Origin: Verrucomicrobiota bacterium | GTDB taxonomy: Bacteria; Verrucomicrobiota; Verrucomicrobiia; Limisphaerales; JADLHS01 | NCBI GenBank assembly: GCA_031384405.1 | Contig: JANNAO010000188.1 | Location: forward strand, 1-32,993 | Length of the DNA stretch: 32,993 bases | Reading direction: 5' to 3' | Part shown: positions 2,195 through 21,050 of the stretch, one piece after another | How positions within the stretch are numbered: the stretch's first letter is position 1 | Layout of the letters: every line of letters starts with the position of its first letter | Notes under the pieces: model-generated | Databases searched by the model: none | Seen by the model: the letters and a program-made list of their open reading frames with translations, nothing else | Told to the model about the DNA's origin: nothing | Position numbers and translations under genes: made by a program

Positions 2195-5100
2195 TCACGG
2201 CACGGGCACCAGAGCGCGATAGTAACGCGGCGAATTTGTCGCGCTTGCCGCATCCGCGATATGCGCCACGCCGCCGAGCAAAATGTTTGTCGAGATCGGC
2301 GTCCATGTGGCGAGATCAGGCGATGTCTGGACGATGTAGGTTTGATTGGCCTGACCGGTGATGTCCACCACGTAAGAACCATCGCTCATTTTACGCAAGC
2401 TCAACGAGCCGGGAGTCGAAGCCCCAACCGCGACGCTCAATGGCAGATCAAGGTTATCAATCAATGCGCCGTCAAAACCGCCCGTCGTATTCGAGTCCTT
2501 GGAATAACGCCACTCGATGGTGTGTGTGCCTGCGCTGAGATTGAAGCTGTAGGTCTGCCATGGAACTTCACCAGACCATTCGGTGACTTGTGATCCATCC
2601 ACCAAGAGGCGGAGTGTGTCCCAAGCAAACTCAGAACTGACGCGCACATCGAATGAGGCGATGCCGGAGCGGAAGTTGCCGGTGAGGATCAAAGAGCTGG
2701 TCTGGCTGTCGCCAATGTTGCCTGAGCGTGCGGCATAAGTGCCAGCGGAGACATTGGTGTTTTGCACGAACCACGGTGTGCCGCTGGAAGTCCAAGCCAA
2801 TCCAGTGAGGTTTCCACTTTCAAACCCGTCAGTGTGAGGCTCTGCGATAAACGCTGCTGTGAGCGTCATGTTGCCGCGAACATTGAACGACAGTGGATTC
2901 GCCAAAGAAACCACGCTTCCAGTCCATTGATTGAAGATCGCTTCAGTGCCGGGAATTGCCGTGAGCGTAGCAAGCGAGTTGCTCGCATACAGCGCAGTGC
3001 CGGGCGTGACTGATCCGTTTCCAGTGGTGTTGACTGTGACGGTATAGACTTGGCTCGTGGTGAAGGAGTAGAAGAGGTTCACAGAGCCAACGGCTCCGGC
3101 GAACCCGTCCACGGCGATATGGTTCGTCTGACCCGCTTTTACAACGATGGTCACTTCGCTAAAGCTGCCGAAGGCGGAATCGTCGTTGCTCGCCACGTTG
3201 GTCAGTGAGCCGACGAGTGAGCCGGAGTAAATGCCGAGGAGCGTGTCGTAGCTCGAATTAGTGGTGCTGACTTTGAGGACGCCATCGGCTGGCGCAACGA
3301 ATCTCCACCAGACGGATTTGCCGCCGACGTTCCCGGCGTGGTTCGGCTCATTGAATTCCTTGGTGGCCAGAGCGGTGTCCGGCGCAGTGCTGTTCCCCGT
3401 GTTGTTCGTCAGGTTGATGGCGAGAACAAAGTGGTCGTTCGCTGGCGGTGCTGGAATGTAATTCACCGTGAGCGTGGTGGTGGCGGAGATGTTTCCGGCA
3501 TTGTCATAAGCCCAAACTTCCAGAGTGTTTGCGCCGAGTTGCAACAGCGTGCTGGAGGCCCAACTCGCTGTTCCATTTGCAGTGGTGGCCGGCACGACAC
3601 CGTTGACGGCGACCTGCACTTCACTCAAACCGGACGAGTTCGGCGTCGGATCAGACGCTGTGCCTGCAAGTGTGATGCGATTGGTGGTCACGCTTACGCC
3701 GCTCAGATGGCTCGTGACACTGACCGTCGGCGAGTTGGTGTCTGGAACTCCGTTGGGCGTGACGCGCAATCGGATCGTTCCGGTTTGATTCGTGTCATAA
3801 CCGGCAACAACGATCCGGTAAGTGTTGGCGGCGGTGGCATTGAAATAAAGATAGCCAGCAAGGCTGTTCGGCACGTCGTCCACAGCGGCGACTTGAACCA
3901 AGTTGGCTACGTTCGTCCCGGTATAAACAGCGAGCAGCGTGTCAAAGGAGCTGCCTGTCGTATCCACCAACACCGGGCCAGTGGCTGATGCAGACCAATT
4001 CCACCAGAGCGAGGCGGACGCAGAGGGGACACCCACATGGTTGGTTTCGCCGGGCTCCATGGAGGCAAATTTATTGAGTGCCAACGCAAGGCCGCCAGCA
4101 TTTGGGATTTTGGAGGCAGCCACAAAATTGTCATTCGTCGGAGGCGGGATGATTGAATACTCCAAAACATTTGTCAGCCCAGACTTGCCCGGTGCAGACG
4201 AGACGAGGGTGAGGGTGAAATTCGTCGTCACATTCGGCGCGATGTAGTTGCCGGAATAAATCGCGTCGTTGGCAACGACGTCCGGCGGGGCGCCTGCGTT
4301 CGCAAAGGTGATGCTACCGCCGATGGAGATGGTTGCCGTCACCGTCGCATTGGTCACCTTGAAGAGATCAGTCACCCGCACCAAGAAGAGATTCGTTGAT
4401 CCGCCGAGAATGACAGAGCCAGAAGGCGGAGCAACGCTGACTTCCAACTGACCGTCCGGCACAGCGACTAGCGCGTTGTAGGCATTGAGCCTGCCGCCCG
4501 TCACGCAACGTCCGTTCAAAGAATTGATGGGCACAGTAGAAACGAGCAAGCGCTCGCGCAATTCGAGATACGTGGCAGCGGGCGTCTGCGCCAACAACAA
4601 CGCAGCCACACCGGTGACATGCGGCGCGGCCATGCTAGTGCCTTGAAATGACGCGTAACTGGAATCGGTATTGGCAGTGCTGGAATAAATCGCCACACCC
4701 GGTGCGCCCAAGTCCACGCTGTCCTGACCGTAATTGGAGAAATTCGCCAAGCGATCTGCACGATCAATGGCTGCGACTGAGATGACGTTGTCCAAGTTGT
4801 AGCTCGCCGGATAACTGGGGCTTGCATCGTTGTTGTTCGCGCTGTTTCCCGCCGCTGCGATGAACAAGTGCCCAGCCGTGCGCGCCGCTGTGAGAGAGTC
4901 GAACAACGCCTGGCTATACGGACCGCCACCCCAACTGTTGTTGGATATTTTTGCGCCTTTAGCCACGGCATAATTCAAACACTCGATCGCGTTCGCAATT
5001 GAACCACCGCCGCTCGCACCCAGAAATTTAAGCCCCATGATCCGCACATTCCAAGTCACACCGACATGTCCACCGCCGCCATTGGCGCGCGCGCCAATAG

Positions 5101-5812
5101 TGCCGGAGCAGTGTGTTCCGTGATCGTTGTCATCGAAGGGATCGCCCGTGCCAGTGATCGAGTTGATACCGAACACGTCGTCAATGTAGCCGTTGTTATC
5201 GTCGTCTATGCCGTTGGCTTCCTTGCCGCTGCCGGACTCGCCGGGGTTGCGCCACATCTGCGTGGATAAATCCTGGTGGGTATAACGAACGCCGGTATCA
5301 ATCACTGCCACGATGACGTTGGTTGAACCCGTGCTGATATTCCAAGCTGCTTCGGCATTGATGTCTGCACCGATCACACCGCCTGAACCGCCGAGATTCC
5401 GCAAGCCCCAGAGTGTGCCGTCTTGAAAGCGGCTGTCCGTGGGTTGGAGATTGGCACTGACAATGTAGTCTGGCTCCACGTAATCAAACTGCCCGCTATT
5501 TCGCAGTGCTTGAATCCGCGCGTTCAACGCATTCGCACGAACGGCTGGAGCAGCGGCCTGAGCCGGAAGTCCATTCGCTTCCAGTACCACCAAGCCATTC
5601 ACGATGGGTAATTGTCTGCGAAGCGTCATGTTCGCAGCGGTCAGTCCCGATGCGCGCGACTGCGCGTTCACGCCGGTCTTGTATTTGGCAAGGATGCGCG
5701 TGGGGTGAACCTCGTGCTTGCCGAGCTTGATCGTGTTCGTGGTCTGGGATTGACCCGCCAGAGAAACCATTCCGGCAACGATGAAAATAAGAGCGAATCG
5801 TAACTTCAGCAT
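2195..5812 (-). CDS. secreted subtilisin-family (S8) serine protease with a ~750-aa multi-domain C-terminal extension
   Basis: Signal peptide MLKLRFALIFIVAGMVSLAGQ. Catalytic motifs VAVIDTGV (Asp172), DNDHGTHCSGT (His231) and GTSMAAPHVTG (Ser393), plus NNSWGG. Downstream are two ~125-aa ND(N/H)F...WW...DTLL..Y modules (aa 560-685 and 792-916), an InlB-B-repeat-like segment (YTVTVNTTGNGSVTPG...NQWTG), a jelly-roll-like segment, and a tail ending SPRYYRALVPVP. Confidence 0.92.
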   Translation of the reverse strand: MLKLRFALIFIVAGMVSLAGQSQTTNTIKLGKHEVHPTRILAKYKTGVNAQSRASGLTAANMTLRRQLPIVNGLVVLEANGLPAQAAAPAVRANALNARIQALRNSGQFDYVEPDYIVSANLQPTDSRFQDGTLWGLRNLGGSGGVIGADINAEAAWNISTGSTNVIVAVIDTGVRYTHQDLSTQMWRNPGESGSGKEANGIDDDNNGYIDDVFGINSITGTGDPFDDNDHGTHCSGTIGARANGGGGHVGVTWNVRIMGLKFLGASGGGSIANAIECLNYAVAKGAKISNNSWGGGPYSQALFDSLTAARTAGHLFIAAAGNSANNNDASPSYPASYNLDNVISVAAIDRADRLANFSNYGQDSVDLGAPGVAIYSSTANTDSSYASFQGTSMAAPHVTGVAALLLAQTPAATYLELRERLLVSTVPINSLNGRCVTGGRLNAYNALVAVPDGQLEVSVAPPSGSVILGGSTNLFLVRVTDLFKVTNATVTATISIGGSITFANAGAPPDVVANDAIYSGNYIAPNVTTNFTLTLVSSAPGKSGLTNVLEYSIIPPPTNDNFVAASKIPNAGGLALALNKFASMEPGETNHVGVPSASASLWWNWSASATGPVLVDTTGSSFDTLLAVYTGTNVANLVQVAAVDDVPNSLAGYLYFNATAANTYRIVVAGYDTNQTGTIRLRVTPNGVPDTNSPTVSVTSHLSGVSVTTNRITLAGTASDPTPNSSGLSEVQVAVNGVVPATTANGTASWASSTLLQLGANTLEVWAYDNAGNISATTTLTVNYIPAPPANDHFVLAINLTNNTGNSTAPDTALATKEFNEPNHAGNVGGKSVWWRFVAPADGVLKVSTTNSSYDTLLGIYSGSLVGSLTNVASNDDSAFGSFSEVTIVVKAGQTNHIAVDGFAGAVGSVNLFYSFTTSQVYTVTVNTTGNGSVTPGTALYASNSLATLTAIPGTEAIFNQWTGSVVSLANPLSFNVRGNMTLTAAFIAEPHTDGFESGNLTGLAWTSSGTPWFVQNTNVSAGTYAARSGNIGDSQTSSLILTGNFRSGIASFDVRVSSEFAWDTLRLLVDGSQVTEWSGEVPWQTYSFNLSAGTHTIEWRYSKDSNTTGGFDGALIDNLDLPLSVAVGASTPGSLSLRKMSDGSYVVDITGQANQTYIVQTSPDLATWTPISTNILLGGVAHIADAASATNSPRYYRALVPVP

Positions 5813-5879
5813 AAAACAATTTTTCCGTCGCGGCAGTCAGCACCGCCATTTTCTAAAGTTCACCCTCAACCAATTTGGT

Positions 5880-8798
5880 TCACGGCTGATAGCCGATTCG
5901 ATAATAACGTTGAGGACTTCCAGCGGGGACAACGTCGGTGACATTGGCCGATGTGGCACTCGCAGAAGTGTTCGTGTAACTCTTGAGCAGTTGCCACGTC
6001 TGAGATTGGTTCGTGACGTATTCGATCTTGTAGATCGTGTTCGCCGCCGCTGTCCAACCCAAGCTCAACGTCAACGGTGAGCTGCTGGCCAACGACAAAC
6101 TCAGCACTGCCGGGTCAAACGGACTTGAATCAAAACCATTGGCCAAACCGTCGCCGTCCGAATCCAAGATCAGGCTCTGACGCAAAGCGCGGTTCACTTT
6201 CGTAATTTGTCCATTCACCAAAAGATCAACTGAACTGTAAGCACCGGCGTAGCTCTTCACCCAGCGCAAACGTCCGCCGAGCATTCCATCCAGTTGTTCG
6301 GCTGGAAGATTCGAGTCGGCAAAATAGATGAACATGTTCGGATCGGCATAGATAGCTGTTTCCACGTCGTCAATTCCGACACCGGCGAATTGAAGGAAAT
6401 CAACGTAGAGCGCATTGCTGACTCCCGTTCCGTAAAACGCCAGTTCCGCGTCAAACCCAACACTCAGCACCAAGCGACCCACTGCCATGTTATTGCTGTA
6501 GCCAGCCACGCTGACACCCCGATCCGCCCCCGGCCATGTGTGATCAATGCTCGCGAACAGCGGTGCCGCCGTCTCCAGACTTGTGCCGAGCAGATCACCT
6601 GAAGTTGGCTTGCCGTTGCCGCTCGCGATTTCCGCATGGAAACCGTCACCGCAAACGATGCGGTTCGGGCCAGCCGCTCCGTTGTCGTAAAGTGTGTTTG
6701 TGATGCTGAAGATGACTGCGCCAGCCGTCTGGTTCGTGTAATTCCGCAACTTGAAGTCAGACGCTTTGACGTTCAGATCGCCGCCCGTATCTGAAGTGCC
6801 GTTCTCCATCCGACCAGAAACCGTGTCCACATGCAAAATCGTCCCTGAATTCATGTAGCCTGCGTTCTCGAAGTAAGCGCTCCGTGCGTAAATGCCAGCA
6901 GCCAAAATATTGCTGCGGTTCACAAAGGCCGTGAGAGGCGTGACAGCCGCAACTGCGTCATACCCAAACCGCGCTTCATTTTGTACTGTGATGTTACCAG
7001 CGTTCGTCAAGTAACGAAGATTGGGCGAGTTACCAACCGCCCAGTTTGGCAATCCACCATTCAACGTGATACCACCACCGTTTGCTTCGATGGTCATCTT
7101 CTGTGCGTCCGTGTAGAAATTATTCGTGATTCGCAATGTATCTCCCAAGAACACGTTCGTCGCACGGGCAATGAACCCAAATGTGGTCACAGGCGTCGGG
7201 AGCAAAACCAAGTCCGAGTTCATGATCATCACATGGAAGTCGTAATTGATGATGTTGGTGATGGGCGAGACGACATAATTCGGGGGGACATTCGTATCCG
7301 GCGCAAAGTTATTAGTGAGGACCAACACCTGTTGGTTACTCCACGTTCCGCTCCATAATTGAACGTCGCCACCGAACCGGTCGACCTGTTGCTTGGCGAG
7401 GTTTTTAACCCTGAGCGTTCCGTTGGTTGAACCCAGATCGAAGTTCAAATTGAACGCGTCCATGTTCGCATTCGTGCTGCTGTAAAGATGTTTGGCCCGG
7501 ACCGTCACCAAACCATCCGAACGGAACCGTGTCCGCTCCAGATTGGCTGTCCCTGCATTGATCTCGATGCGTCCGGCGATGTTCGTGATGGACGCGCCAG
7601 GGATCACCGGCTGAACACCAGAAAGTTTATCCGCCGTGAACCCGTAGCCCGCCCAACGCGCAGGCGCGAACGCATTGGTGAAATTGGGCTTGTATAACAG
7701 ATTGTTGGTCACCACCGAATTGGGCGCGCTGCCCAACGCAAATTGCAGAGGTTGCAATCGGCTGACAAGATAGGACGAGGGCTTGTACGTTCTCGGCTGC
7801 ACTGTGTTGTTGGTGGAGATCACCAAATTGGTGCCGGAAGCCAGACGATCCAAAATGTAAAGAGTCAGGATGTCGTTCTGTGTTGTGACGGGATTGTTGA
7901 TGGTGGCGGACAGTTCAACGGCGATCGTCTGAAACAGATTGGTTGGAGTTATACTCGGATAAAAACGCGCACGCGCTCCGATGTTCGGACCTGAAACACT
8001 CACGAAGGCGCCTTGAACAATCCAATTCGTCACCAGCAATATGTTCGTGACCTGACCGGTGATGTTGGTGATCGTCAGATTCAACGGAGGCGTGTTGGTG
8101 ATGTTCACGAACGAGATGGCGGGAAATGCAGTTGTCCCCAACGGCGGGGGGCCGGAAGCCTGATAGTTCGTCGTATTGCCAATGATCACCTGAGTCAGGA
8201 TGCTCGCCGTATTAATATTGTTCGTCCCGATGCCCCAATAGTTATCAATGATCGCTGTCTCCGGGAGAAAGATCGTGCCGTTGGTGTTTTCCGCCGTGCC
8301 TGAACCCGCGAAGGGCGCGACCTGAACACCGCCGCGCTTGATGTTCACATTCGTTCCCTTGAGCGACATCAATCCCAACTCGCCCACGGTCATGATGCCT
8401 TCGTTGATCAAGTTGGTCGCTCCGATCCAGAGCTGGGAAGAAAGTCCAAAATCTGACGAAGTGATCGTGCCTTGTGGATGATTGTGGAAGACTGCTGCTG
8501 CGCGACGAATCCCCGCTCCACTTGGCGCGTGATCCAGTTGAAAGCCAACAGCGCCGCTCATCGCTCCGCGATTGGTGAAGTTCTCCGTGTTCGACGTGCT
8601 GAACGGCAACGAGGTAAAAATGGAGATCGTACCGTTGTTGACGAAGTTGGTGGCGTTGACATTCGGCGGCGTGGTCACCACACCGCTGTTGATGTAAAAC
8701 GCGTCCACCGCCTGACTCACCGTGGGCAACACAACCAACGACATCGCTAAAAGAAAACGCTTCATAATCATTTGTGGCACGCTTGGCTCAAAACTCAT
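5880..8798 (-). CDS. large secreted protein of unknown function (972 aa), N/T/G-rich, beta-rich composition
   Basis: 973-codon ORF whose ATG overlaps the stop of the upstream gene by 1 nt (8798). Signal peptide MKRFLLAMSLVVLPTVSQA; alternative starts at 8771 or 8765. I can assign no named catalytic motif. The C-terminus has DSDGDGLANGFD followed by a tail ending QRYYRIGYQP. Confidence 0.8.
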   Translation of the reverse strand: MSFEPSVPQMIMKRFLLAMSLVVLPTVSQAVDAFYINSGVVTTPPNVNATNFVNNGTISIFTSLPFSTSNTENFTNRGAMSGAVGFQLDHAPSGAGIRRAAAVFHNHPQGTITSSDFGLSSQLWIGATNLINEGIMTVGELGLMSLKGTNVNIKRGGVQVAPFAGSGTAENTNGTIFLPETAIIDNYWGIGTNNINTASILTQVIIGNTTNYQASGPPPLGTTAFPAISFVNITNTPPLNLTITNITGQVTNILLVTNWIVQGAFVSVSGPNIGARARFYPSITPTNLFQTIAVELSATINNPVTTQNDILTLYILDRLASGTNLVISTNNTVQPRTYKPSSYLVSRLQPLQFALGSAPNSVVTNNLLYKPNFTNAFAPARWAGYGFTADKLSGVQPVIPGASITNIAGRIEINAGTANLERTRFRSDGLVTVRAKHLYSSTNANMDAFNLNFDLGSTNGTLRVKNLAKQQVDRFGGDVQLWSGTWSNQQVLVLTNNFAPDTNVPPNYVVSPITNIINYDFHVMIMNSDLVLLPTPVTTFGFIARATNVFLGDTLRITNNFYTDAQKMTIEANGGGITLNGGLPNWAVGNSPNLRYLTNAGNITVQNEARFGYDAVAAVTPLTAFVNRSNILAAGIYARSAYFENAGYMNSGTILHVDTVSGRMENGTSDTGGDLNVKASDFKLRNYTNQTAGAVIFSITNTLYDNGAAGPNRIVCGDGFHAEIASGNGKPTSGDLLGTSLETAAPLFASIDHTWPGADRGVSVAGYSNNMAVGRLVLSVGFDAELAFYGTGVSNALYVDFLQFAGVGIDDVETAIYADPNMFIYFADSNLPAEQLDGMLGGRLRWVKSYAGAYSSVDLLVNGQITKVNRALRQSLILDSDGDGLANGFDSSPFDPAVLSLSLASSSPLTLSLGWTAAANTIYKIEYVTNQSQTWQLLKSYTNTSASATSANVTDVVPAGSPQRYYRIGYQP

Positions 8799-11002
8799 CA
8801 GGGTAAAACGGTGATGGAATAATCCCGCACTACGAATCTCCCCACTGAATCTGTCATGTGCAAGGTGAAATCATAGATGCCCTGAGTGGTCGGATCGCCA
8901 GTGATCGCGCCTGTGCTGGTGTTCAACAACAGTCCGGGCGGAAGACCGGGCGAGCCAGCCGCCAGACTCCAGTTGTAAGGAGGCGTCGCTCCACCGGAAA
9001 CGGTGAACCCACTGAACACGGTGGAATAATTCACCGTGCCTGCCGCACTGATGGACGGCAATGCCGGGCCAGCGGGCGTAATCTGGATCAACGCCTGATT
9101 TTCGATGTTGAGAATATCCGTGCCGTTGGGATACACGACGGGCGCGTTGGTTGTTCCATCGAAGCTGCCCCAGATGAACCAGAGTAGCGCGCCAGCTTGA
9201 TCCAATAAATCCAAAGCTTGGTTTTGGTAAATCGGACCAACCTTATTATAAGTGAATACTTGCCCTGGATTGAAAACGCCCGGCCCGGCTAAACCGGGAT
9301 TAATATTCCCTTGATCGTAAGAAATACTTCGCGCAGCAGGGGGCACTGCTAGTAAAACTCCGTTAGGGCCAGGAGCCAGATCATCTGCATCCATCAAAAT
9401 GTCTGGTGTGGTCACAACTCGCCGCACGATGCGAGTTACCAAACTGTTGTTCGTCAGAACTGTGATCGGATAGTCGTTTGTGACCGGGAAAAAGAAGCGG
9501 CCAAGCAATGAATCCAAGTCGCGTCGCACGAATTGAACACGCTCAATTCCCTGGCGCAGCCCAAGAGTGTTCGCGGGGCAAACCACCGGCTTGATCTGGA
9601 AAATGTATTGATTGAATGACCCAATCGTTGTCTTTGAGAAGACTTCAATTCCAAGATTGGTCGCACCTGTCACTGCCGCGAACACAGGCGGATTGGTGAA
9701 TCCGACATTCAGAATCAACTGGGTGGAAACGATCGAGACGCCGCAATTATTGGACGGAATCAGGAAGTAATCCCCGAAGACACCATTTGTCATGAAGCTG
9801 ACTGAGGTGATGCTTTGGCAGATCAAGCCTGCGGGTGCAAACGGTGAACACGCTGTCGTCGAAATATTGGTGGTCACCACAGTCACAAGCCCATTCGTGA
9901 AGAACGTATTGGTGACAACATTCTCGAACGTATGCCGGAAATGCGTGGCGATGTTAGTCGTCACCACTGTCGCTGAGACAAGTTGTGCGGGCGCACTTGA
10001 TGGCGCGAAAGGCGAGTTGGTGAAGTAAAAGATGGTGTTGGTGGTGACCACATTGGTGAAAATGGTCACGGTGGAGGCGACTTGTAGTCCCGGGAACAAT
10101 GCGGCCATTGTCGCCGCATCGTTGGTCAACGATGCCGAGGCCAACGCTGTGAGATTCGAAGTGAAGAGCAACTGAATCGTGTTGTTCGTTACGAACGTAA
10201 TGGTTTCAGAGCCGTTGTTTTCAAAATTGTAATTGTTCGTCCGCATCAAATAGCGGAGTCCGGCGACATCGTCACGAGTCAAGCCAGTAAAGAAACTTCC
10301 ATAACCCGGCAATAACGATGCGACTGCTGTGAAAGTCAGAGCAGTAGGGTCAACTGCAAACTCAATGGCGTCTGCGAGCGGGTTGGGGCCTGTGCAGGCT
10401 TCAAGAATTAAGTAGCTATACAATGTGCCATTAACGTAGCTCGAAGGCTGCAATTGATCTGGATTTGAAAATACTGGATCGAAATTGCGTTTGATCACGT
10501 CATACACCTGATTTGCCGGACAGCTACCACCAGGAAGGGTAAAGCGGTTGTGCAAACTCCAGACGTAACGTTCCGGCTCGGCCAACCCCAATTGCTCTAC
10601 TAGTAAATTCAAAGTTGCGGATCGCAAATCATACAAGCCGAGTGCTTGAGCTAGATAATTTTCACGAGTCATTTCCAATGGCATTTCTGACAATGCACCC
10701 GTGTAACTGGAAACATTGGTCAGTCCATTCATGACCGCACAGGCACCATCAACCGCGTACAACCCATTCGATCCGAAATAATCTAGGAAGGTTTGGTTGG
10801 CGGAATAATAAATGACCGGCCTGTTCCAGCGGTATTCCTCCCCAAGATTTTTTGGCGCGCCGATGTCACCGCCTATCCCATAAGCAATCACTGGCACCTG
10901 ATAGGCTTCATTCAACGGGCCTAAAAGTGCAAACGCACCGGCTTTCTCGATGCCCAGCATCAAGACGGAGACCAAAATTAGTTGCTTCAACAATCTGACC
11001 AT
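8798..11002 (-). CDS. secreted protein of unknown function (734 aa) with a C-terminal He_PIG-like Ig segment
   Basis: ATG lies 13 nt after the stop of the upstream gene. Signal peptide MVRLLKQLILVSVLMLGIEKAGA. The C-terminal PPYNWSLAAGSPGLPPGLLLNTSTGAITGDPTTQGIYDFTLHMTD resembles the putative-Ig (He_PIG / dystroglycan-type) repeat. The rest has no motif I recognise. Confidence 0.8.
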   Translation of the reverse strand: MVRLLKQLILVSVLMLGIEKAGAFALLGPLNEAYQVPVIAYGIGGDIGAPKNLGEEYRWNRPVIYYSANQTFLDYFGSNGLYAVDGACAVMNGLTNVSSYTGALSEMPLEMTRENYLAQALGLYDLRSATLNLLVEQLGLAEPERYVWSLHNRFTLPGGSCPANQVYDVIKRNFDPVFSNPDQLQPSSYVNGTLYSYLILEACTGPNPLADAIEFAVDPTALTFTAVASLLPGYGSFFTGLTRDDVAGLRYLMRTNNYNFENNGSETITFVTNNTIQLLFTSNLTALASASLTNDAATMAALFPGLQVASTVTIFTNVVTTNTIFYFTNSPFAPSSAPAQLVSATVVTTNIATHFRHTFENVVTNTFFTNGLVTVVTTNISTTACSPFAPAGLICQSITSVSFMTNGVFGDYFLIPSNNCGVSIVSTQLILNVGFTNPPVFAAVTGATNLGIEVFSKTTIGSFNQYIFQIKPVVCPANTLGLRQGIERVQFVRRDLDSLLGRFFFPVTNDYPITVLTNNSLVTRIVRRVVTTPDILMDADDLAPGPNGVLLAVPPAARSISYDQGNINPGLAGPGVFNPGQVFTYNKVGPIYQNQALDLLDQAGALLWFIWGSFDGTTNAPVVYPNGTDILNIENQALIQITPAGPALPSISAAGTVNYSTVFSGFTVSGGATPPYNWSLAAGSPGLPPGLLLNTSTGAITGDPTTQGIYDFTLHMTDSVGRFVVRDYSITVLP

Positions 11003-11015
11003 ATAAAAGCTTTAG

Positions 11016-12890
11016 TTAGCGCAGTCTCTCGATCTGGTAGAAGCCCGCGCTGCTCCCACCCACATACATTGAATCCACAGTGCCCGCTGCAAAGCGCGGC
11101 CCGCCCACTTTCGTCCACGGGCCAGCCGGCGCCGCTGAACTCAAGACCTGATACATCAAACCGGATTGCGTGTTCCAATTCAGGAACAAGCCCTGAGCCG
11201 TCGGTTGAAGGCGCACTTTCAAGACGCTGTTCGCATCGTTGGGATTTGTGCCCGCTAGGAATTCATTCTTGTTGGATGCTCCATCGCCATCCGTATCCAC
11301 ATACGGCGAAGGCCAGCTAAAGATGTCGCCACCGAAATACGAGATCATCCATTCTTGAGGAATACCGCCCCACGTTGCTCCTGCACTGTAAGTCGTGTTC
11401 GTGGTCGCTGCCGACAGCGGTGAATGTCTGCCGTCCGTCAACACGTAGGACAATCGATAGCTATGCTGGCTGGCGGGGGCCAATCCTGTGGCATTCCAAT
11501 AGGTGTTGGTCACCACGGCGGTCGCCGTCGCCGCTCCATCAGCGAACACTTCATAGTTCGCGATGCTGAATCCGCTCACAGGCGGCCAGCTCACGCTCAA
11601 GGTGTTCGAGCTGATCACCGTGACGATCGGTGCTCCGGGTGCAGCCAAAGGTTGATTCGTGTTGACGTAGCGTTGGGCAAAGAGATCAAACACGCCTGCA
11701 CCGCCGACGAATCCACTCCAGACTGTCAGGAAACGCGCCGTACCGTCCGACGCCACTGTCGGATGAATCTGCTGGCTGATCGTGGAAGTGTTGATGCGGA
11801 ATTCGCTGCCAGCCAACATGCCGCTACCATTCAAAAATTGTCCATACACACCTTCGCGTGATCCGTCCTGTCCGAGGCTCGACCAAGTGACGATGAATTG
11901 CGTCCCTTGCACTGCGATCTTGGGAACGTATTGATCGCCGTGGGTGTAAGTGTTGATCCGCCGCGCGACTCCGCCCAAACCATTCGCTGAGAACGGACGC
12001 GCCACGATATCCCAACTGTTCGCCGCCACTATCGTGTCTTTCTCAGACCAAGCCACCGCAAAGCCACCATCAGTCGTCGCCGCCACGCTGGGATTCGCGC
12101 AGACGTTGGTGCTGCTGTTCACTAGGAATTCACCGCCGACCGCAGTGCCCGCCGCTGTAAAGAGGCGCGCGTAAATATCCGCTCCGTTCGCAACGCGTTG
12201 CTGTTCGGAAACCCACACCACGACAAATCGTCCGTCGCTCAACGGAGCGACGTTCGCAGTGCGTTGGTTGAACGCAGTAACTTGATTGACCAGAACTTCG
12301 CCACCGAACTTCGTGCCCGTCGGCGTCAAAATCTGGAGATAGACATCTCGCAAACTGTCGCCAGCCACTTGATTGAAACTCGACCACGCGACGACCGCGT
12401 TGCCGTTGGTCAACGTGGCGATGGTTGTCTCCAACTGAAACGTGTTGGTGGAGGTGTTGACATCAACATCGCCCGTCACCCATGTGCCCGCCGATGACAA
12501 AATCCGCGCTTTGATATGTTGAAAACTTTGCTTGCCGCTTTCCCACGCGAAAATCGCGCCGCCACCGTTCAACAATGAAACGACAGGCCGTTCTTGATCG
12601 TCCGCGCCATTTTGATTCACGCGAAATACACTGAGAGTTCCGCTGAGGCTGCTGTCCAGCTTCCGCGCGCTGATGCCATAGCCGTCGCCATCCGTGATGT
12701 TGTCGCGCCAGACGAGGTAACCGCCGCCGGGCTTGATGCTCAACTGCGGATGAACCTGCTCTCCGGGAAGTGTGCCTGCGATGCCGAACTCGCCACCTTC
12801 AGTGATGAAGCTGCTCTGGGCCTGCGCCAGCGTGGCCGAGACAACCAACAGACCGATGCCAGAAATCCGGGCGTAAGGGAACGATGCCAT
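11016..12890 (-). CDS. secreted 7-blade repeat (beta-propeller-like) protein with FN3-like domain and C-terminal tail
   Basis: Track ORF 11016..12986 trimmed to the ATG at 12890, where a signal peptide begins (MASFPYARISGIGLLVVSATLAQAQ). Seven ~55-aa repeats of the type GGEFxVNxxTxxxQxxPxVAxxxDGxFVVxWxS...xxGVYxQxF. An FN3-like segment (PGAPIVTVISSNTLSVSWPPVSGFSIANYEVF...). DTDGDGASNKNEFLAGTNPNDANS, then a tail ending AGFYQIERLR. Confidence 0.8.
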   Translation of the reverse strand: MASFPYARISGIGLLVVSATLAQAQSSFITEGGEFGIAGTLPGEQVHPQLSIKPGGGYLVWRDNITDGDGYGISARKLDSSLSGTLSVFRVNQNGADDQERPVVSLLNGGGAIFAWESGKQSFQHIKARILSSAGTWVTGDVDVNTSTNTFQLETTIATLTNGNAVVAWSSFNQVAGDSLRDVYLQILTPTGTKFGGEVLVNQVTAFNQRTANVAPLSDGRFVVVWVSEQQRVANGADIYARLFTAAGTAVGGEFLVNSSTNVCANPSVAATTDGGFAVAWSEKDTIVAANSWDIVARPFSANGLGGVARRINTYTHGDQYVPKIAVQGTQFIVTWSSLGQDGSREGVYGQFLNGSGMLAGSEFRINTSTISQQIHPTVASDGTARFLTVWSGFVGGAGVFDLFAQRYVNTNQPLAAPGAPIVTVISSNTLSVSWPPVSGFSIANYEVFADGAATATAVVTNTYWNATGLAPASQHSYRLSYVLTDGRHSPLSAATTNTTYSAGATWGGIPQEWMISYFGGDIFSWPSPYVDTDGDGASNKNEFLAGTNPNDANSVLKVRLQPTAQGLFLNWNTQSGLMYQVLSSAAPAGPWTKVGGPRFAAGTVDSMYVGGSSAGFYQIERLR

Positions 12891-13004: not shown

Positions 13005-13886
13005 CTAAATCAATTCCTGCTGCCTTGTCTGCGCAGATTCCAGTTCCGCGAGCATGGAGCGAAAGCCCCAACCGCGATACAATCCCATCAACCGCCCCGC
13101 ATCCGCCGGTCTCGCAACCAACGCGTCTGCGGAAAATTCGCTTCCCACTTCCGTCTTCAACCGCACAAGCGATTGATTCCGTCGCACATCGGCCTCTGCC
13201 GTTTTCAATGCGCCCCGGATGCGTTCGGATTTCACTTCATCCAATCGCCGATACAACTCCACCACCGACCCGAATTGCTTCAACAAGTCCGTCGCCGTCT
13301 TCGGCCCGACTCCCGGCACGCCAGGAATGTTGTCCACACTGTCGCCCAGCAGACTCAACCAATCTCCGATCTGTTCCGGCTCGACTCCGGTCTTGCCTCG
13401 CACTTGCTCCGCTGTCCAAATCGTTTCCGACTTGTCGTTCGGATTCAACAAACCGATGCCCGGCGCAACGAGCTGCATAAAATCTTTATCCGCGCTGGCG
13501 ATCACCACTTCCATCCCCGCCTTCGCCGCCGCGTCCGTCACGAACGCGATGTAATCGTCCGCTTCCACACCGTCCGCGCAATACGAGGCGATGTTCGCCG
13601 CGCCGAGATACCCGATGATCTCGTCCAGTTGCGAACCGAGATCCGCTGGCATCTCCGGCCGTTGCGCCTTGTAACCCGGCAATGCCTCGCGCCGCTCCGC
13701 ACTCAACCCACCGTCCCACACCACGATCAGGTGGCTTGGATTCACCGTCGCCCGCATCTTGCCGAGCATCTTGATGAACCCGTAAATCGCATTCGTCGGT
13801 TTGCCCTCCGGCGAACTCAGACTGCGTATCGCATAAAACGCCCGGTATGCGTATGCGTGTCCATCCACTATCAAAATTCGCGCCAT
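13005..13886 (-). CDS. stand-alone 5'-3' exonuclease (Pol I N-terminal / FEN-like, PIN + H3TH)
   Basis: MARILIVDGHAYAYRAFYA, GVEADDYIA, ASADKDFMQL and the H3TH motif LLGDSVDNIPGVPGVGPKTATDLL. At 293 aa there is no polymerase domain. Confidence 0.9.
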   Translation of the reverse strand: MARILIVDGHAYAYRAFYAIRSLSSPEGKPTNAIYGFIKMLGKMRATVNPSHLIVVWDGGLSAERREALPGYKAQRPEMPADLGSQLDEIIGYLGAANIASYCADGVEADDYIAFVTDAAAKAGMEVVIASADKDFMQLVAPGIGLLNPNDKSETIWTAEQVRGKTGVEPEQIGDWLSLLGDSVDNIPGVPGVGPKTATDLLKQFGSVVELYRRLDEVKSERIRGALKTAEADVRRNQSLVRLKTEVGSEFSADALVARPADAGRLMGLYRGWGFRSMLAELESAQTRQQELI

Positions 13887-13952: not shown

Positions 13953-16649
13953 TTACCTCCCCGCAGGTGCGCTCTGGTAGAAGGGCAAATCTTCATCGCG
14001 ATTCGCGCGATTGCCAGCAGGGTCAATGATCGTCGGCGTAACAAAGATGATGAGGTTTTTCTTGCGCGTCTGCGAGGACTCGCTGCGGAACAATTTGCCG
14101 ATGAACGGCAGGTCGCCCAACATCGGAACCTTGTCCTTGATCTTGGTCACTTCGTCAGAGATCAAACCACCAAGCACCACCGTCTGGCCGTCCCACACGC
14201 TGCAACTTGTCGTGACTTGGCGCACGCGGAAGATCGGAAGCGGAAGAACTGATGTCACGCTTTGACCGGCTGGCGTGAGAGCTTGCGGAACAAAAATTTC
14301 AGCCGTCGAAAAGTCATACCCGACGAACTCGGTCAGTGTTGGAATAATTGTCATCTGGATCGTGACTCCATCAGCAGAGACCGTCGGCAACACGTCAATG
14401 ACAGGACCGAGCGGAATCGGAGAGGTTGTTGGACTTACGAATGTTGAAGTCTGGGCCTGCTGCGTCGTTCCACTTCCAGTGTTGTTGCCGCCACCATTCT
14501 GGCCCTGCTGTTGATCAATGCCCGTGACGATGGTCTTGACTTCAGCAACTGAAATCTGCGCCTGACGACCGCTGAGTGTGGTCACTTGACCTTCGTTCAA
14601 CAGATCAATGCCGTCACGCTGCTCGATGGCGCGAAGCACCACGCGGAATTGCGGATCGGTCAGAATACCCGTGAAGGTTGCAAGAGCAGGCGTGACGGAG
14701 TTGTCGCGTCCAAAATTGTTACGCAATCCACCCGTGAGCAGCGCGTCCGTCGTTGACGGCGCAATCGCTGTGTCTGTCACAATGTTCCCGGCAATGTCCC
14801 GGATGGTCTGACCGGGGAAGCTGCCAAAGATGTTGGCAGGCGTGGGCGATCCACCCAATGTCGGCTGTGTTCCACCTGATCCCAGCGATCTGCCACCGAA
14901 GATCATGTTCCCCAGATACCAATCAAAGCCGATGGCCTTGTTGTCATTCTGGGAGATCTCTGTGAAGCGGGTTTTGATATTGATCTGGGGCGGCGCAATG
15001 TTGAGCACTCGAACCACCTGCTCGATGATGTCCAACTCCTCAGCCGTCGCGCGGACATACAGCGTGCCTTCGCGGTCGTTGAAGAAAACTGTTTTGCCCA
15101 CAGCCGGGTCCAAATTCACACCCATGGTAACGAAGAATGTGCGAACTGCGGAGTGAACTGCCTCCATCGCGTTAGTGCGGGTCAAGCCAGCGATGCCTTG
15201 ACCGCTCTGGCCGCCGCCGCCTTGTCCACCGCCGCCACCACCGCCTTGTCCACCAGTGGTGCTGCTGGTAACGCTCACGCGGGGAATTATGAAACCACTG
15301 CCCTGACCGCTTTGGCCTCCACCACCACCGCCACCTCCTCCGCCACCACCACCGCCACCGCTTGACGACTGAACGTTGAGAATCAATCCACTGACGCTTT
15401 CCAAACCTTGATAAAAAGTGTTCGGGTCAACGTGAAACTGGCGGCTTTCCAATTGCAGCAACTCCGCGCCCTTGAGCGAAACAACCACGGCGTATTCTTC
15501 AAATGAAATCTTCAACGGTGTGCGCGCCACTTTAGTCACCGCGTCCAAAACATCCGCGAGACGCACATCACGCAACGGAGGGTTCAGCTTGATCTCGATG
15601 CTGGCGACGTCCACGGATTCAGTCAGAGGTGCTGCGATGGGCAAACCGGTCGCAGGATCAATTCCCACTGGCGCACCAGCAGGTGCGGCTGCGGAGTTCG
15701 GATTGACGATGATGTTCACGCCTTGCTTTGCGGTGTCGCGCTTGCGGGCTTCTTCGCTAAGGATACGAACCACTTCGCTCAACGGCATCGTGTCCGGTGC
15801 GCCTTCAAACGGGAAGCTCTCGAACTTGATCGCGTTGAGCTTGTTCATGATCGCCTGACGACCTTTACCGGTATTGATCTGGCCGTTCTTGTTGTAGGTA
15901 TTGGGGACGGACAGTGAGTCTCGCTTTTTCGGCGTGTTCCATGTGTCCACGACTTCGAGAACCTTGTTCGCATTGTCTTGCTCAGACTTTGACTTGCTGA
16001 TGCGATAACGCTGTTCGCGAAGCTGGCTGACCTGACGGTTCGCCGCGCTGTTCTGCGGATCGAGAGCGAGGGCTTGCTTCAGTTCTACTTCAGCTTGATC
16101 GAGCTTGCCCGCTTCGAGCAACACACGCGCATTGGTGACGTGCGTGGCGGCACTGATTTTGTTTGTCCGGGCTGCCCTCGCGTCACTGATCACTTCCGGC
16201 GTGGCAATAACGCCTGCGAGTTCAGCAAGGGTCTTGTCATTGGCGGATTTCGCGGCGATGGCGGAAGCATTCTTGGGGTCGGCCTTGAGCACCAACGCGA
16301 GTTGTGTTTGCACTTCGCGATAATCCCCACGACGGCGGGCGATTTCAGCGAGCTGCAAACGCACGGACGAGAAACCCTGGATGGCGGCGGCGGATTCTTG
16401 TGGTGAATTGCTTGGCCCGATCTGCTCAACGAGACCGACGGCGGCATCGTAAATCTTCGCGGCAGAAACGAGATCGCCGCGACCGACGGCTTGTTGCCCC
16501 TCGTCAAGTTTCTGGCGCAACAGGATGAGGTTTGCCTCGCGATAGACCGCCTGATTCACGGCGGCGTCCACATCCGCGTTTTGCGCTGTGGCGATTGACG
16601 TAGAGGCGAAGGCTAATGCCAGGCCGAAGTAGATTGCTGCTTTTGTCAT
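13953..16649 (-). CDS. pilQ: secretin (PilQ/GspD family) with N-terminal TPR-like region and poly-Gly linkers
   Basis: Signal peptide MTKAAIYFGLALAFASTSIATAQ. TPR-like repeats at aa ~30-215 (RRGDYREVQTQLALVLKADPKNASA; LLEAGKLDQAEVELKQALALDPQNSAA). STN/N0-like segment NAIKFESFPFEGAPDTMPLSEVVRILSEE. Gly tracts at aa 431-445 and 466-480. Secretin signature GQTVVLGGLISDEVTKIKDKVPMLGDLPFIGKLFRSESSQTRKKNLIIFVTPTII. Confidence 0.9.
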   Translation of the reverse strand: MTKAAIYFGLALAFASTSIATAQNADVDAAVNQAVYREANLILLRQKLDEGQQAVGRGDLVSAAKIYDAAVGLVEQIGPSNSPQESAAAIQGFSSVRLQLAEIARRRGDYREVQTQLALVLKADPKNASAIAAKSANDKTLAELAGVIATPEVISDARAARTNKISAATHVTNARVLLEAGKLDQAEVELKQALALDPQNSAANRQVSQLREQRYRISKSKSEQDNANKVLEVVDTWNTPKKRDSLSVPNTYNKNGQINTGKGRQAIMNKLNAIKFESFPFEGAPDTMPLSEVVRILSEEARKRDTAKQGVNIIVNPNSAAAPAGAPVGIDPATGLPIAAPLTESVDVASIEIKLNPPLRDVRLADVLDAVTKVARTPLKISFEEYAVVVSLKGAELLQLESRQFHVDPNTFYQGLESVSGLILNVQSSSGGGGGGGGGGGGGGGQSGQGSGFIIPRVSVTSSTTGGQGGGGGGGQGGGGQSGQGIAGLTRTNAMEAVHSAVRTFFVTMGVNLDPAVGKTVFFNDREGTLYVRATAEELDIIEQVVRVLNIAPPQINIKTRFTEISQNDNKAIGFDWYLGNMIFGGRSLGSGGTQPTLGGSPTPANIFGSFPGQTIRDIAGNIVTDTAIAPSTTDALLTGGLRNNFGRDNSVTPALATFTGILTDPQFRVVLRAIEQRDGIDLLNEGQVTTLSGRQAQISVAEVKTIVTGIDQQQGQNGGGNNTGSGTTQQAQTSTFVSPTTSPIPLGPVIDVLPTVSADGVTIQMTIIPTLTEFVGYDFSTAEIFVPQALTPAGQSVTSVLPLPIFRVRQVTTSCSVWDGQTVVLGGLISDEVTKIKDKVPMLGDLPFIGKLFRSESSQTRKKNLIIFVTPTIIDPAGNRANRDEDLPFYQSAPAGR
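15195..15368 (-). repeat. coding low-complexity tract inside the secretin gene (two poly-Gly / QSGQG runs)
   Basis: Encodes SSSG(15)QSGQGSGFIIPRVSVTSSTTGGQG(7)QGGGGQSGQG. The first run is 15 consecutive Gly codons (15315-15359) using 8 GGT, 4 GGC and 3 GGA. Confidence 0.9.
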
Positions 16650-16699: not shown

Positions 16700-17494
16700 T
16701 CACTGCGGAATGGGAACCGGCGTTTTTTTCTGGTTCGATTTCGCCAACACTACAACTTCCGTCTTTGTGATGGCAACGATATTGTAATCTTCGCCACCAA
16801 ATTTAAGCGCGCCACCGACGCGTTGATTCAGCCACGGGGGACGATTCTCCAGCGGATATCTCAAATCCACCGTGTATCCATCCACGCGTTTGAAAGGTTT
16901 TTCTTTCGAGACGCTGACCAACTCTCCGCCTTCCACCAACTCAACCACCACTTCGGTCGGCGCATCCACCGGGCCTTTGACTTCACGTAAAACAAACACT
17001 TCGTTCTTCTCGTCCTTCTTGGAGACAAACGGCTTTCTGCCACGATTAGATGCCTTCGCCGCCGCTTCACGCTCCACATACATCACATACCGGGTGCCGC
17101 TGTCGGTAGTGCTCACGGAATCGAGTGTGATGGTTAGATGGAGCGGACGCTGATTCGTCACGATGAGCGCTCCCGGCCCGGTTTCGTCACCGGTCACGAT
17201 CTTGAAGATCGTTCCATCAGCCTTCTTCTGCCACAGCATCGGATTCAACACTTTGTTGGTGGTGGACAAATCCACAACTCCCGCTGTGGATAATCTCGTG
17301 AAGCGCGCCTGTTGCGTGGAGATGTTCAAAGGAAGAATCTCCTTGGCTGGGCGGTTGATGATCTCGCTGGCCTGTTGCTCCAGCGCGGTGCGCTCGCTGG
17401 GCACCATCACCAGCATCATGACCGCGATGACCACCAGCACGAGTAACACAATGCCGAGGATGATCTTTTCGTAATGTTTTTTGAGCAAGTCCAT
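16700..17494 (-). CDS. single-pass membrane protein of unknown function, in the PilP position of the pilus-like cluster
   Basis: ATG lies 4 nt after the stop of the upstream gene. N-terminal TM helix IILGIVLLVLVVIAVMMLVMV. No named motif; the assignment rests on gene order only (between the PilO-position gene and the secretin). Confidence 0.75.
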   Translation of the reverse strand: MDLLKKHYEKIILGIVLLVLVVIAVMMLVMVPSERTALEQQASEIINRPAKEILPLNISTQQARFTRLSTAGVVDLSTTNKVLNPMLWQKKADGTIFKIVTGDETGPGALIVTNQRPLHLTITLDSVSTTDSGTRYVMYVEREAAAKASNRGRKPFVSKKDEKNEVFVLREVKGPVDAPTEVVVELVEGGELVSVSKEKPFKRVDGYTVDLRYPLENRPPWLNQRVGGALKFGGEDYNIVAITKTEVVVLAKSNQKKTPVPIPQ

Positions 17495-17498
17495 GAGA

Positions 17499-18545
17499 CT
17501 ACTTTTGGGGAGGCAACAATTTGACGACGTGGATCAGAACCGTGATCCGCAACTCCTTTTCCTTCAGGAACGGTTGCAAACCACTTTTTGAACCCAGTGG
17601 GGCGATAGGTTGAGCCACGGGCGCGGCTTGGCCGTAGGGACTTCGGTAACCACCGGCACCAGCACCGCCGTAACGATTCGCAAACGCTCCACCGGGCCGG
17701 CCTCCCTCTTCACCAAGACCACCACGAGGATAAGCTGGCACCGCGACAGGTTGCTGATAATAGACCGGAGTTACAGCCGCCAAATCCGACATCGCCGATG
17801 CGGGCGCGGCCTCGCTGTTGATGGCCTTGACCAACAATCCGTAGGGCGACCGCGCAAATCCAGCCAACACACCCGCAAGTTCCGGCGTGAAGCAACGGAA
17901 TGTCACCTCATACGGCGTGACGATTGATAGCTCATTGGTCGTGGACGACAGATCGAGATAGTCCGTCGGCGTGCCTGCGAGATCATCGGGTGACCCCGGA
18001 ACGCGCTCGCGCCGGATGCCTTCGAGAGAATTTATCTTGGCCTCATTCAATACGTCGCAGATGACCTTCACTTCACCGAGTTGAACGGCCAGCGGCTGCA
18101 ACGTCCCCTCCGCGAACTTCACCAAGCCCGCCTGTTTCTCGAATGAAAAATTATACTTCGGCGGCAGGATGACGCTGTTGTTGGTGGCACCCCGTTGGAG
18201 ATCGCTGATCGTGTCTTGCAACACAGCTTTGTAATCTTTGGAAGCGATGTTCGTCCCTTCGGGCAACGCAGGAATGGATTGGAGGCGCGTTCCGAGTTTG
18301 GTCAGAAAGGCCTGAGCTTCCTTTTGCTGCTCTTTGGCCCGTTCGATGTTATTGACCTTGCCTTCACCGGGCGACGGATTCAGCCCTTTCAGGCGTTTCA
18401 ATTCGCTGTAGCCTTCGGACAATTTGGTGGTCTGTTCAGAGCTATTTTGCCAGCCAGAAAAACTATACCAGCCAGCCAAGCCCATGAGCACCAGTGCTAC
18501 GACAGCACCGATGACGAACACTAGATTTCGTTTGATCCAGTCCAT
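17499..18545 (-). CDS. Amuc_1100-like / PilO-position pilus-cluster protein
   Basis: N-terminal TM helix (LVFVIGAVVALVLMGLAGWY), then a coiled-coil-like segment. VTPYEVTFRCFTPELAGVLAGFARSPYGLLVKAINS and the C-terminal QPFLKEKELRITVLIHVVKLLPP resemble, from my memory of the Akkermansia Amuc_1100 sequence, PMPLEIAFQGDRESVLKAMNAITG...FTVNSIRI and KPYMGKEQVFVQVSLNLVHFNQP. A G/A/P-rich insert sits at aa 246-318. Confidence 0.75.
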   Translation of the reverse strand: MDWIKRNLVFVIGAVVALVLMGLAGWYSFSGWQNSSEQTTKLSEGYSELKRLKGLNPSPGEGKVNNIERAKEQQKEAQAFLTKLGTRLQSIPALPEGTNIASKDYKAVLQDTISDLQRGATNNSVILPPKYNFSFEKQAGLVKFAEGTLQPLAVQLGEVKVICDVLNEAKINSLEGIRRERVPGSPDDLAGTPTDYLDLSSTTNELSIVTPYEVTFRCFTPELAGVLAGFARSPYGLLVKAINSEAAPASAMSDLAAVTPVYYQQPVAVPAYPRGGLGEEGGRPGGAFANRYGGAGAGGYRSPYGQAAPVAQPIAPLGSKSGLQPFLKEKELRITVLIHVVKLLPPQK

Positions 18546-20439: not shown

Positions 20440-20853
20440 CGCGTTTCTTCGCCAACCGGGTTTTTTCGCCGCCTTGCGTACACAACAGAAGGAAGCCCGC
20501 GTTGGTTAACGGAATTAACCAGAAGGGTCAAACAGAAAAAGCTTTTCCGTGCAAATCTTCTGCAATAATTCCGCTCTCTCAAACTCCGCAACAACCGACG
20601 TGAGTCGGCTCAACCATTCGGAAACTCAGAGCGAACTGATATTCGCCGCTACGTTCTGAAAGAAACGCTTCCCGAAAGTGATTATAGGTTTGATCCGACA
20701 AACACCATCTTCGCGCATTCCTTCATCCCCTCACGCCATCCATTCGCTCGCCCAAAATCGCGCCCGCACCTTTCACTCGTTTTTTCGGCGAGGTTTGAGG
20801 CAATTCAAGCTTGCCAATCGGAGCATCGCCCGGCATCGTTTCCGCCCGTTAGT

Positions 20854-20928
20854 GCGTGGTTAGCTCAGTGGTAGAGCATTACCTTGACACGGTAGGGGTC
20901 ACAGGTTCGAACCCTGTACCGCGCACCA
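20854..20928 (+). tRNA. tRNA-Val: tRNA-Val, anticodon GAC, CCA encoded
   Basis: Folded by hand: acceptor GCGTGGT/ACCGCGC (one G-U), D arm GCTC-AGTGGTA-GAGC, anticodon arm TTACC-TTGACAC-GGTAG, variable loop GGGTC, T arm ACAGG-TTCGAAC-CCTGT, discriminator A, CCA. Total 75 nt. Confidence 0.93.
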
Positions 20929-21050
20929 TCTTCAGACCAGACTCCGAACACGGAAACTCCCCAGAGCGGAGGCTCGTCGCAACGTAATTTTTCCAACACA
21001 CCGCCAAACCATGCCTCAGACCTCGTGCTTCTTTTGCAATTCGGGTTCGG

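Follow-up and report, generated by a model that had tools for sequence, protein, structure and literature searches.

Three conserved secreted proteins and a variable fourth gene form the far end of an Amuc_1100-type secretin locus in uncultured Verrucomicrobiota

The window analysed here is a stretch of 32,993 nucleotides (nt), positions 1 to 32,993 of contig JANNAO010000188.1 (assembly GCA_031384405.1) of a Verrucomicrobiota bacterium. It carries four consecutive minus-strand genes for large secreted proteins, called here g1 (11016-12890), g2 (8798-11002), g3 (5880-8798) and g4 (2195-5812). An earlier note, made from the DNA letters, had described these four open reading frames (ORFs) as a free-standing cassette. 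The ORF listing places all four exactly at these coordinates, but the set does not stand alone: it is the far end of a same-strand locus that spans about 19 kb (roughly 20439 to 1558), starts with genes for PilM-like, Amuc_1100-like and secretin proteins, has no terminator-like site between these genes and g1, and is related to the Amuc_1100 cluster of Akkermansia. The link to a pilus-like secretin machine, missed by the earlier note, is the most informative fact to emerge from the analysis. We favour, with a probability of roughly one half, a joint reading in which g1-g3 belong, as conserved and exported components, to a type IV pilus-like secretin system of Verrucomicrobiota, the payload slot that g4 fills is variable, and the locus is the environmental counterpart of Akkermansia Amuc_1098-1101, the MUL2 locus.

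Five genes lie upstream of g1 on the same strand. The first (18547-20439) encodes a protein with a PilM-like ATPase fold, a transmembrane segment and a PilN-like tail; it matches the NCBIfam Amuc_1101_fam model at E 4e-147 (491.6 bits, under the equivalog cut-off of 650), the pilM model TIGR01175 at 149.1 bits, over the cut-off of 133, and Pfam PilM_2 at E 7.5e-38. The second (17499-18545), separated from the first by 1 nt, encodes a probable pilus-like protein of the Amuc_1100 family, the NCBIfam match of which is confined to the N-terminal half (E 4.8e-16, 59 bits with a cut-off of 180). The window protein has no Pfam match; for orthologues in this position, a precomputed match to Pfam PF28028 (Amuc_1100) is on record. 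The third gene (16700-17494), at the position of Amuc_1099, encodes p264, a protein of 264 amino acids (aa) with an N-terminal membrane anchor and no match in Pfam or NCBIfam, and a protein of 261-274 aa occupies this position in every related locus that reaches that far. The fourth (13953-16649) encodes an Amuc_1098-like secretin of the outer membrane, whose N-terminal part carries TPR repeats and whose linkers are rich in Gly; it matches Amuc_1098_fam at E 1.2e-107 (361 bits, under the equivalog cut-off of 750) and Pfam Secretin at 107.8 bits, over the cut-off of 27.5, in addition to TPR models. The fifth (13005-13886; NCBIfam) encodes a stand-alone 5'-3' exonuclease similar to the N-terminal domain of DNA polymerase I and is an optional passenger of the locus. 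After g1-g4 the array ends with coaE, the gene of dephospho-CoA kinase (1558-2142; TIGR00152, E 8e-48), which is a conserved 3' neighbour. From 20439 to 1558 the successive gaps are 1, 4, 50, 66, 114, 13, about 0-32, 67 and 52 nt. As a separate observation, the linkers of the secretin include long poly-Gly stretches, one of about 17 Gly, and several related loci show the secretin divided between two called ORFs, of about 730-760 aa and about 205-217 aa; the division may be genuine or may come from frameshifts in the repeats that code for Gly.

The arrangement was followed through 8 contigs anchored on g3 (24-63% g3 identity) and 80 metagenome loci chosen as the best g2 matches; one close locus, L001, came from a single-sequence g2 search of genome contigs. 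Wherever the contig allowed a test, the 90 related loci keep the order PilM, Amuc_1100, p264, secretin, (exonuclease), g1, g2, g3, variable gene, coaE, and all 8 g3-anchored contigs do so down to 24% g3 identity. Among the g2-anchored loci, g1 adjoins g2 in 72 of 73 testable cases, the lone exception being an ORF-boundary artefact, and g3 adjoins g2 in 65 of 69, two of the four exceptions being frameshift splits. Immediately ahead of g1 stands the exonuclease gene (20 loci) or the secretin gene itself (23 loci), one or the other in 43/43 testable loci. The co-occurrence in fixed order that the earlier note had proposed to look for among the three non-protease genes is thus found in relatives, where the genes stay linked and are not scattered, and g1-g3 are the conserved core of the set. 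All three families are large. At E up to 0.001, searches matched more than 2,100 proteins to g1 and more than 1,900 to g2; for g3, clustered at 50% identity, there are 3,008 cluster representatives at E up to 1e-3 and still 1,038 at 1e-30, the latter being a minimum for the family. Homologues come from uncultured Verrucomicrobiota and are annotated only as 'hypothetical' or 'Ig domain-containing', those of g1 throughout as 'hypothetical'; cluster look-ups return labels at the level of metagenome-assembled genomes, such as Verrucomicrobiae and Verrucomicrobiales.

The closest described relative is the Amuc_1098-Amuc_1102 (MUL2) locus of Akkermansia muciniphila, which the window resembles in the matches to the Amuc_1101 and Amuc_1098 models and, in a weaker and partial way, to the Amuc_1100 model, in their common order and strand and in the coaE gene downstream (PMC5332112, PMC13174399). 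It differs in that all three window matches fall under the equivalog cut-offs, in that neither the window nor 8 relatives carry an Amuc_1102-like (MUL2A) pilin gene upstream of the PilM-like gene, where unrelated genes are found in the 8 related loci, and in about 11 kb of additional DNA, comprising the exonuclease gene, g1-g3 and g4, inserted between secretin and coaE. As the synteny is described in PMC13174399, Akkermansiaceae have no such insert, and the secretion-channel gene is followed directly by the dephospho-CoA kinase gene. With g1-g3 and a payload between secretin and coaE, the window therefore has an extended form of MUL2. The MUL2 locus was proposed to mediate attachment to glycans (PMC13174399).

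Under the favoured reading, Sec export would carry g1-g3 to the periplasm, from where they would cross the outer membrane, or dock at it, through the co-encoded secretin, in a step that may be likened to the export of type II secretion substrates or to the release of proteins through type IV pilus machinery. Once outside, the three proteins would make up a Ca2+-stabilised, beta-rich binding module that joins the propeller of g1, the novel fold of g2 with its Ig tip and the long solenoid of g3 and that would capture particles or polymers, while the slot-4 protein would add a lineage-specific activity, proteolysis here and adhesion elsewhere. In this most economical view, g1-g3 would be partners of the secretin machine, as its cargo or as a complex docked at the surface. 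Several points weigh against this reading. No prepilin leader motif is present in any frame of the window, and the window holds no gene for a pilin, an ATPase or a platform protein; as far as the window shows it, the machine is incomplete. The connection of g1-g3 to the secretin is drawn from gene linkage and from signal peptides judged by a heuristic. The counts of conserved loci are not independent events, since the 80 g2 loci were selected by g2 similarity and include near-duplicates (e.g., L011/L012 and L036/L037). Finally, the array also conserves coaE and the exonuclease gene, two housekeeping genes clearly foreign to pilus function, which shows that gene order can be kept here where no function is shared, and the direct passage from secretin to coaE in Akkermansiaceae (PMC13174399) means that the machine can exist without g1-g3.

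The last two points also speak for a rival reading, in which g1-g4 form an autonomous secreted operon (for instance an adhesin, coat or proteolytic set) that leaves the cell by another route and neighbours the secretin genes by vertical inheritance; the 114-nt gap before g1, the largest of the locus, could hold its promoter. We consider this reading possible and somewhat doubtful. It has to accommodate an adjacency that holds in every testable locus down to 24% g3 identity, with g1 immediately after the secretin in 23 of them, and a single strand with no terminator-like site between the exonuclease gene and g1. Nor did Pfam and NCBIfam searches find a device for another exit route, namely a type IX secretion system (T9SS) C-terminal domain, an autotransporter barrel, a two-partner secretion (TPS) domain or a PEP-CTERM signal.

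The transcriptional limits of the set bear on the same question. The earlier note had called the cassette terminator-bounded, and this holds for its 3' side: 19 nt past the g4 stop lies an intrinsic-terminator-like minus-strand hairpin (2149-2175) with an 11-bp stem, 9 G-C pairs and a run of six T. It is by far the best terminator-like site and the only strong one in the 33-kb window, in which the total number of such sites does not exceed that of shuffled sequence. On the 5' side, neither the terminator scan nor folding of the spacer (z -1.24, not significant) revealed a terminator in the stretch from the exonuclease gene to g1, and the g1-g4 set is therefore closed at its 3' end only. The T-run of the hairpin abuts the coaE ATG at 2142, which leaves no space for a promoter of coaE's own, so that partial read-through from g4 into coaE is likely. 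A comparable hairpin precedes coaE in L002, L004 and L017 and is not present in all loci. A sigma-70 promoter scan gave no site near g1; it returned fewer sites than shuffled sequence and is uninformative for this phylum.

As for the junctions, those of 13 nt between the g1 stop and the g2 ATG and of 67 nt between g3 and g4 are read in the sequence as the earlier note had given them. The 1-nt g2/g3 overlap can likewise be read as annotated (TGATG); however, when 42 homologues of g3 are aligned, the first Met that is kept almost without exception is Met12 (MKRFLL..., nt 8765), so that the start of g3 is more likely at nt 8765 than at nt 8798, and the junction is then probably a 32-nt gap and not an overlap. 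For g1, the ATG at 12890 has the support of 30 orthologues, at least 90% of which have M1; the g1 frame is open upstream as far as a GTG at 12986.

All four proteins have Sec-like N-termini, in agreement with the earlier note. Signal peptides were judged by a heuristic only (basic residues, hydrophobic core, AxA-like site, lipobox), which gave 1-2 basic residues, a hydrophobic core with a 10-mer Kyte-Doolittle value of 2.4-2.95 and AxA-like sites in each case, and no lipobox Cys in any of the four N-termini. The g1 protein continues with a seven-bladed beta-propeller, followed by an FN3 domain, a Ca-binding TSP3 loop and a C-terminal domain shared with other proteins of the locus. The seven blades are marked by Trp residues at positions 61, 116, 169, 226, 281, 336 and 391, spaced 53-57 aa apart; across 30 orthologues six of them are invariant and W169 is kept in at least 90% of the sequences. 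The Pfam matches to fn3 and TSP3 after the propeller are weak. The conserved Trps and the fn3 match bear out the earlier description of g1 as a 7-blade repeat protein with FN3. We also considered g1 as a homologue of Amuc_1099 and rejected this, as the match to Amuc_1099_fam (E 8e-7, residues 506-556) spans the TSP3-type loop only. In the divergent locus L006 g1 is a propeller alone.

These features call to mind PilY1, a protein with a C-terminal beta-propeller, Ca2+ binding and a type I signal peptide. Like PilY1/PilC, g1 is a non-pilin protein with an ordinary, type I signal peptide, a beta-propeller, a Ca-binding motif (in g1 the TSP3 loop after the propeller) and a gene in a pilus-like locus, and one could imagine g1-g3 as a PilY1-like tip or priming complex, that is, as Sec-exported non-pilins that ride on a filament and mediate Ca2+-dependent adhesion. 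We regard this as unlikely. Neither g1 nor any of its 30 orthologues matches the Pfam PilY1/PilC family, there are no minor-pilin or prepilin genes nearby, and PilY1 genes normally sit beside minor pilins and not after pilQ; g1 further differs by carrying FN3 and a C-terminal domain private to the set.

The 734-aa g2 protein consists of the signal peptide, an alpha/beta region (residues ~24-300), a block of 20-residue beta-hairpins (~308-474), a beta-rich region (~480-640) and a terminal He_PIG immunoglobulin-like (Ig) domain at residues 652-732 (E 1.7e-9), the latter being its only Pfam family. An AlphaFold2 model built from 52 sequences has a predicted local distance difference test score (pLDDT) of 81.8 and shows six beta-strands of ~15-21 residues within residues 308-474. 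A fold search of the PDB with this model returned only Ig- and cadherin-like folds, with query-normalised template modelling (TM) scores of ~0.1, and a PDB profile search returned only the Ig domain of SraP, at residues 678-731; in general, the PDB profile searches of the cassette proteins yielded generic FN3 and Ig domains only. The alpha/beta domain of g2 is thus predicted to be novel. The L006 version of g2 has neither the hairpin block nor the Ig domain, and the reduced g1 and g2 of this locus therefore define the core of the two proteins. G+C content is 0.49-0.51 over g2 (9000-11000 of the window) compared with 0.55-0.59 elsewhere, which probably reflects an N/T/I/F-rich composition rather than foreign origin.

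The 972-aa g3 protein, with its signal peptide counted from the probable start at 8765, has an all-beta, solenoid-like body of ~850 aa with recurrent TN/Asn motifs, a TSP3-like loop (DSDGDG) and the shared C-terminal domain, and is rich in Asn (9.6%), Thr (9.7%) and Gly (9.1%). Its AlphaFold2 model is all-beta (pLDDT 88.1) and contains long hairpins of 16-24 residues. No family match was found in Pfam or NCBIfam, nothing at E up to 1 in a PDB sequence search, nothing below E 0.14 in a PDB fold search and nothing useful in a BFVD fold search (best E 8.9e-4, TM at most 0.15). Profile-profile comparison detected no homology between g3 and g2; the full profiles of g3 and g1 give a weak repeat-like match (probability 77%). 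The Pfam, NCBIfam, PDB and BFVD searches thus agree with the earlier note in placing g2 and g3 in no family apart from the terminal Ig domain of g2, nor do they recognise a fold in the rest, and the models of the 734- and 972-aa proteins found no PDB fold match beyond the Ig type.

Heading the weak fold matches of g3 are a tapirin and passengers of the beta-helix type; TM scores reach 0.18-0.19 at most. The passengers of autotransporters and TPS systems (Hbp, EspC, Pet, EtpA), which are the best of these weak neighbours, resemble g3 in being long, all-beta, secreted and solenoid-like. They differ at the level of the match itself (E at least 0.16, TM at most 0.18), in that g3 has no translocator barrel or TPS domain, and in the 16-24-residue hairpins, which are atypical of these helices. 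The tapirins of Caldicellulosiruptor are likewise large beta-helix-type binding proteins of unique fold encoded beside a type IV pilus locus (bioRxiv 10.1101/359786); the match of g3 to 6n2c is, however, not significant (E 2.5, TM 0.11-0.19), and the tapirin hosts are Gram-positive and have no secretin. Since a pectate lyase stands beside beta-helix proteins among the weak fold matches of g3 (E 0.16-2.5) and a weak Glyco_hydro_43 match appears in 2 of the 30 g1 orthologues (best E 5.5e-4), the set could be viewed as a polymer-degrading complex, with g3 as a beta-helix polysaccharide lyase or hydrolase and g1 as a lectin or glycosidase propeller. This we consider very improbable. No family of glycoside hydrolases, polysaccharide lyases or carbohydrate-binding modules is significant in g1-g3, and the Pfam, NCBIfam, PDB profile and fold searches agree in finding no significant glycoside hydrolase or polysaccharide lyase, the ordinary families that the earlier note had named as the alternative to a novel set. 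In addition, the fold TM scores do not exceed 0.18, and the invariant residues of g3 look structural rather than catalytic, most of them being Asn, Gly, Pro, Leu or Tyr and only one (D553) an Asp.

The fourth gene is of a different nature. The g4 protein is a secreted S8 subtilase with a non-catalytic extension of ~750 aa, as the earlier note had it: the Peptidase_S8 domain (PF00082) at residues 164-426 matches at E 3e-53 (181 bits with a cut-off of 21.8), the triad D172/H231/S393 is intact and stands, together with the oxyanion residue N292, in canonical motifs, and the extension consists of PPC-like, Ig-like, InlB B-repeat and jelly-roll-like regions and the shared C-terminal domain. The notion that the set has its own protease as a fixed member did not survive a census of the 47 loci that extend beyond g3. 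In ~27 of them g3 is followed by a giant Calx-beta/beta-propeller protein, which is akin to the DUF5122/Calx-beta giant of L003 and exceeds 2,000 aa wherever it is complete; in ~4 coaE follows directly. A protease of family S8 or S53 comes immediately after g3 in ~14 of the 47. An S8 head with the extension is found in 5-6 loci, an S53 (pro-kumamolisin) head on the same extension in 4-5, and the extension alone in 2. Examples of the S53 form are L027 (12600-16628) and L070 (5462-9445), in which a sedolisin head sits on a g4-type ~750-aa extension, and the extension alone matches across the S8 and S53 forms at E 1e-160 to 1e-200. Judged from these matches, the exchange of S8 and S53 on one extension is a clear case of catalytic-head swapping. 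In loci with the giant protein a further secreted protease may follow it, of family S53 in L003 (21714-22958) and L089 (22088-23006) and of family M36 in L090 (13872-14530), so that the locus repeatedly ends with a protease, which may be of family S8, S53 or M36. In two of these three loci (L003, L090) CLIPPER domains are present on both the protease and the giant, which suggests, as a parallel case, a protease-giant pairing through a common CLIPPER domain.

A further link within the set is a C-terminal domain of ~65 aa common to g1, g3 and the slot-4 proteases and absent from g2. In the window it is encoded at 11019-11228 in g1 (the last ~70 aa, with the pattern W ... YQVxSS ... W ... FYQI), at 5883-6101 in g3 and at 2198-2425 in g4, all on the minus strand; the g3 copy was located by hhalign and a hidden Markov model (HMM), the g4 copy by hhalign and a combined HMM. 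When alignments of the last 80 aa were compared by hhalign, g3 matched the slot-4 proteases with a probability of 96.1% (E 3.2e-9) and g1 matched g3 with 92.6% (E 4.5e-7); the match of g1 to the slot-4 proteases is weaker (55%). An HMM of the g3 domain matches the g1 C-terminus across loci at E 1e-3 to 1e-7, and the combined HMM matches g1, g3 and slot-4 proteases only, among ~4,600 ORFs of 88 loci and the ORFs of the window. Searches of the last 80 aa against Pfam and NCBIfam at E up to 10 gave nothing except DUF7449 at E 0.17, and the T9SS C-terminal sorting domain (Por_Secre_tail) was not found there. As an observation apart, L017 encodes a g1 paralogue of ~800 aa with the shared domain just past coaE, at 19878-22304 on the minus strand, opposite to that of the locus.

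We view the shared domain as a candidate sorting or attachment tag. A more far-reaching interpretation is that it is the sorting signal of an unrecognised route of export or display, that the PilMNOPQ-like machine, which has no pilin gene beside it, carries folded beta-proteins of very large size through the outer membrane of Verrucomicrobiota, and that g1-g3 are its obligatory scaffold outside the cell. This is improbable in our opinion; if true, it would amount to a new variant of secretion system, with a logic comparable to that of the T9SS C-terminal domain.

Exoproteins encoded beside such machines include PulA in the Pul operon, SslE with the type II secretion system (T2SS) beta of E. 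coli, and TcpF with the TCP pilus. The favoured reading of g1-g3 as exported partners of the secretin machine has a precedent in Dichelobacter nodosus, in which secretion of S8 subtilases requires the type IV fimbrial system (PMC3480457). The window shares with these type IV pilus and T2SS exoproteins the location of genes for large proteins with Sec signals by secretin genes and an S8 subtilase with a C-terminal extension. It differs in having three additional conserved, non-enzymatic proteins of no recognisable fold, and in its machine genes, which correspond to the PilMNOPQ-like part only; the secretin route is here a putative one.

Beyond the locus, upstream of the PilM-like gene, there are ~410 nt of non-coding DNA and a tRNA-Val gene on the other strand, the latter being the only hit of an Rfam search of the window. 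A plus-strand gene (21373-24174), divergent from the pilus-like locus and about 0.9 kb away from its start, encodes a 933-aa secreted protein with FAD_oxidored, Golvesin_C and Calx-beta domains and a TSP3-like loop near its end. It was considered as a further carrier of the shared C-terminal domain and dropped, as the combined HMM does not match it despite a similar-looking ending. Within 24230-25203 of the plus strand an ORF of 267 aa joins a ParE toxin domain (residues 5-93) to dihydrofolate reductase (117-251) with no stop between them; there is no ATG before the first strand of the reductase, and a 68-aa ParD-like ORF overlaps the ParE start. The ORF is either a true fusion of toxin and dihydrofolate reductase or a dihydrofolate reductase gene with a non-ATG start. 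At the other end of the window two tandem plus-strand frames (62-577 and 581-1561) encode GDP-mannose 4,6-dehydratase, the first comprising the C-terminal half of the family only, and this first frame is probably a remnant or a split duplicate.

What is of a known kind in this locus is the secretin/pilus-like system, and what is new is the presumably dedicated exoproteins g1-g3 and the C-terminal domain: as judged by sequence searches, g1-g3 are three uncharacterised families absent from Pfam and NCBIfam, to which one new C-terminal domain is added. The Amuc_1100/MUL2 locus has been studied intensively for the effects of Akkermansia on its host, and many uncultured Verrucomicrobiota carry an extended locus of this type. 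If g1-g3 are indeed the cargo or the external part of the machine, the locus would be a secretion or adhesion apparatus with identifiable clients. This would provide a handle on what the Akkermansia-type system does and would define three new protein families and one C-terminal domain.

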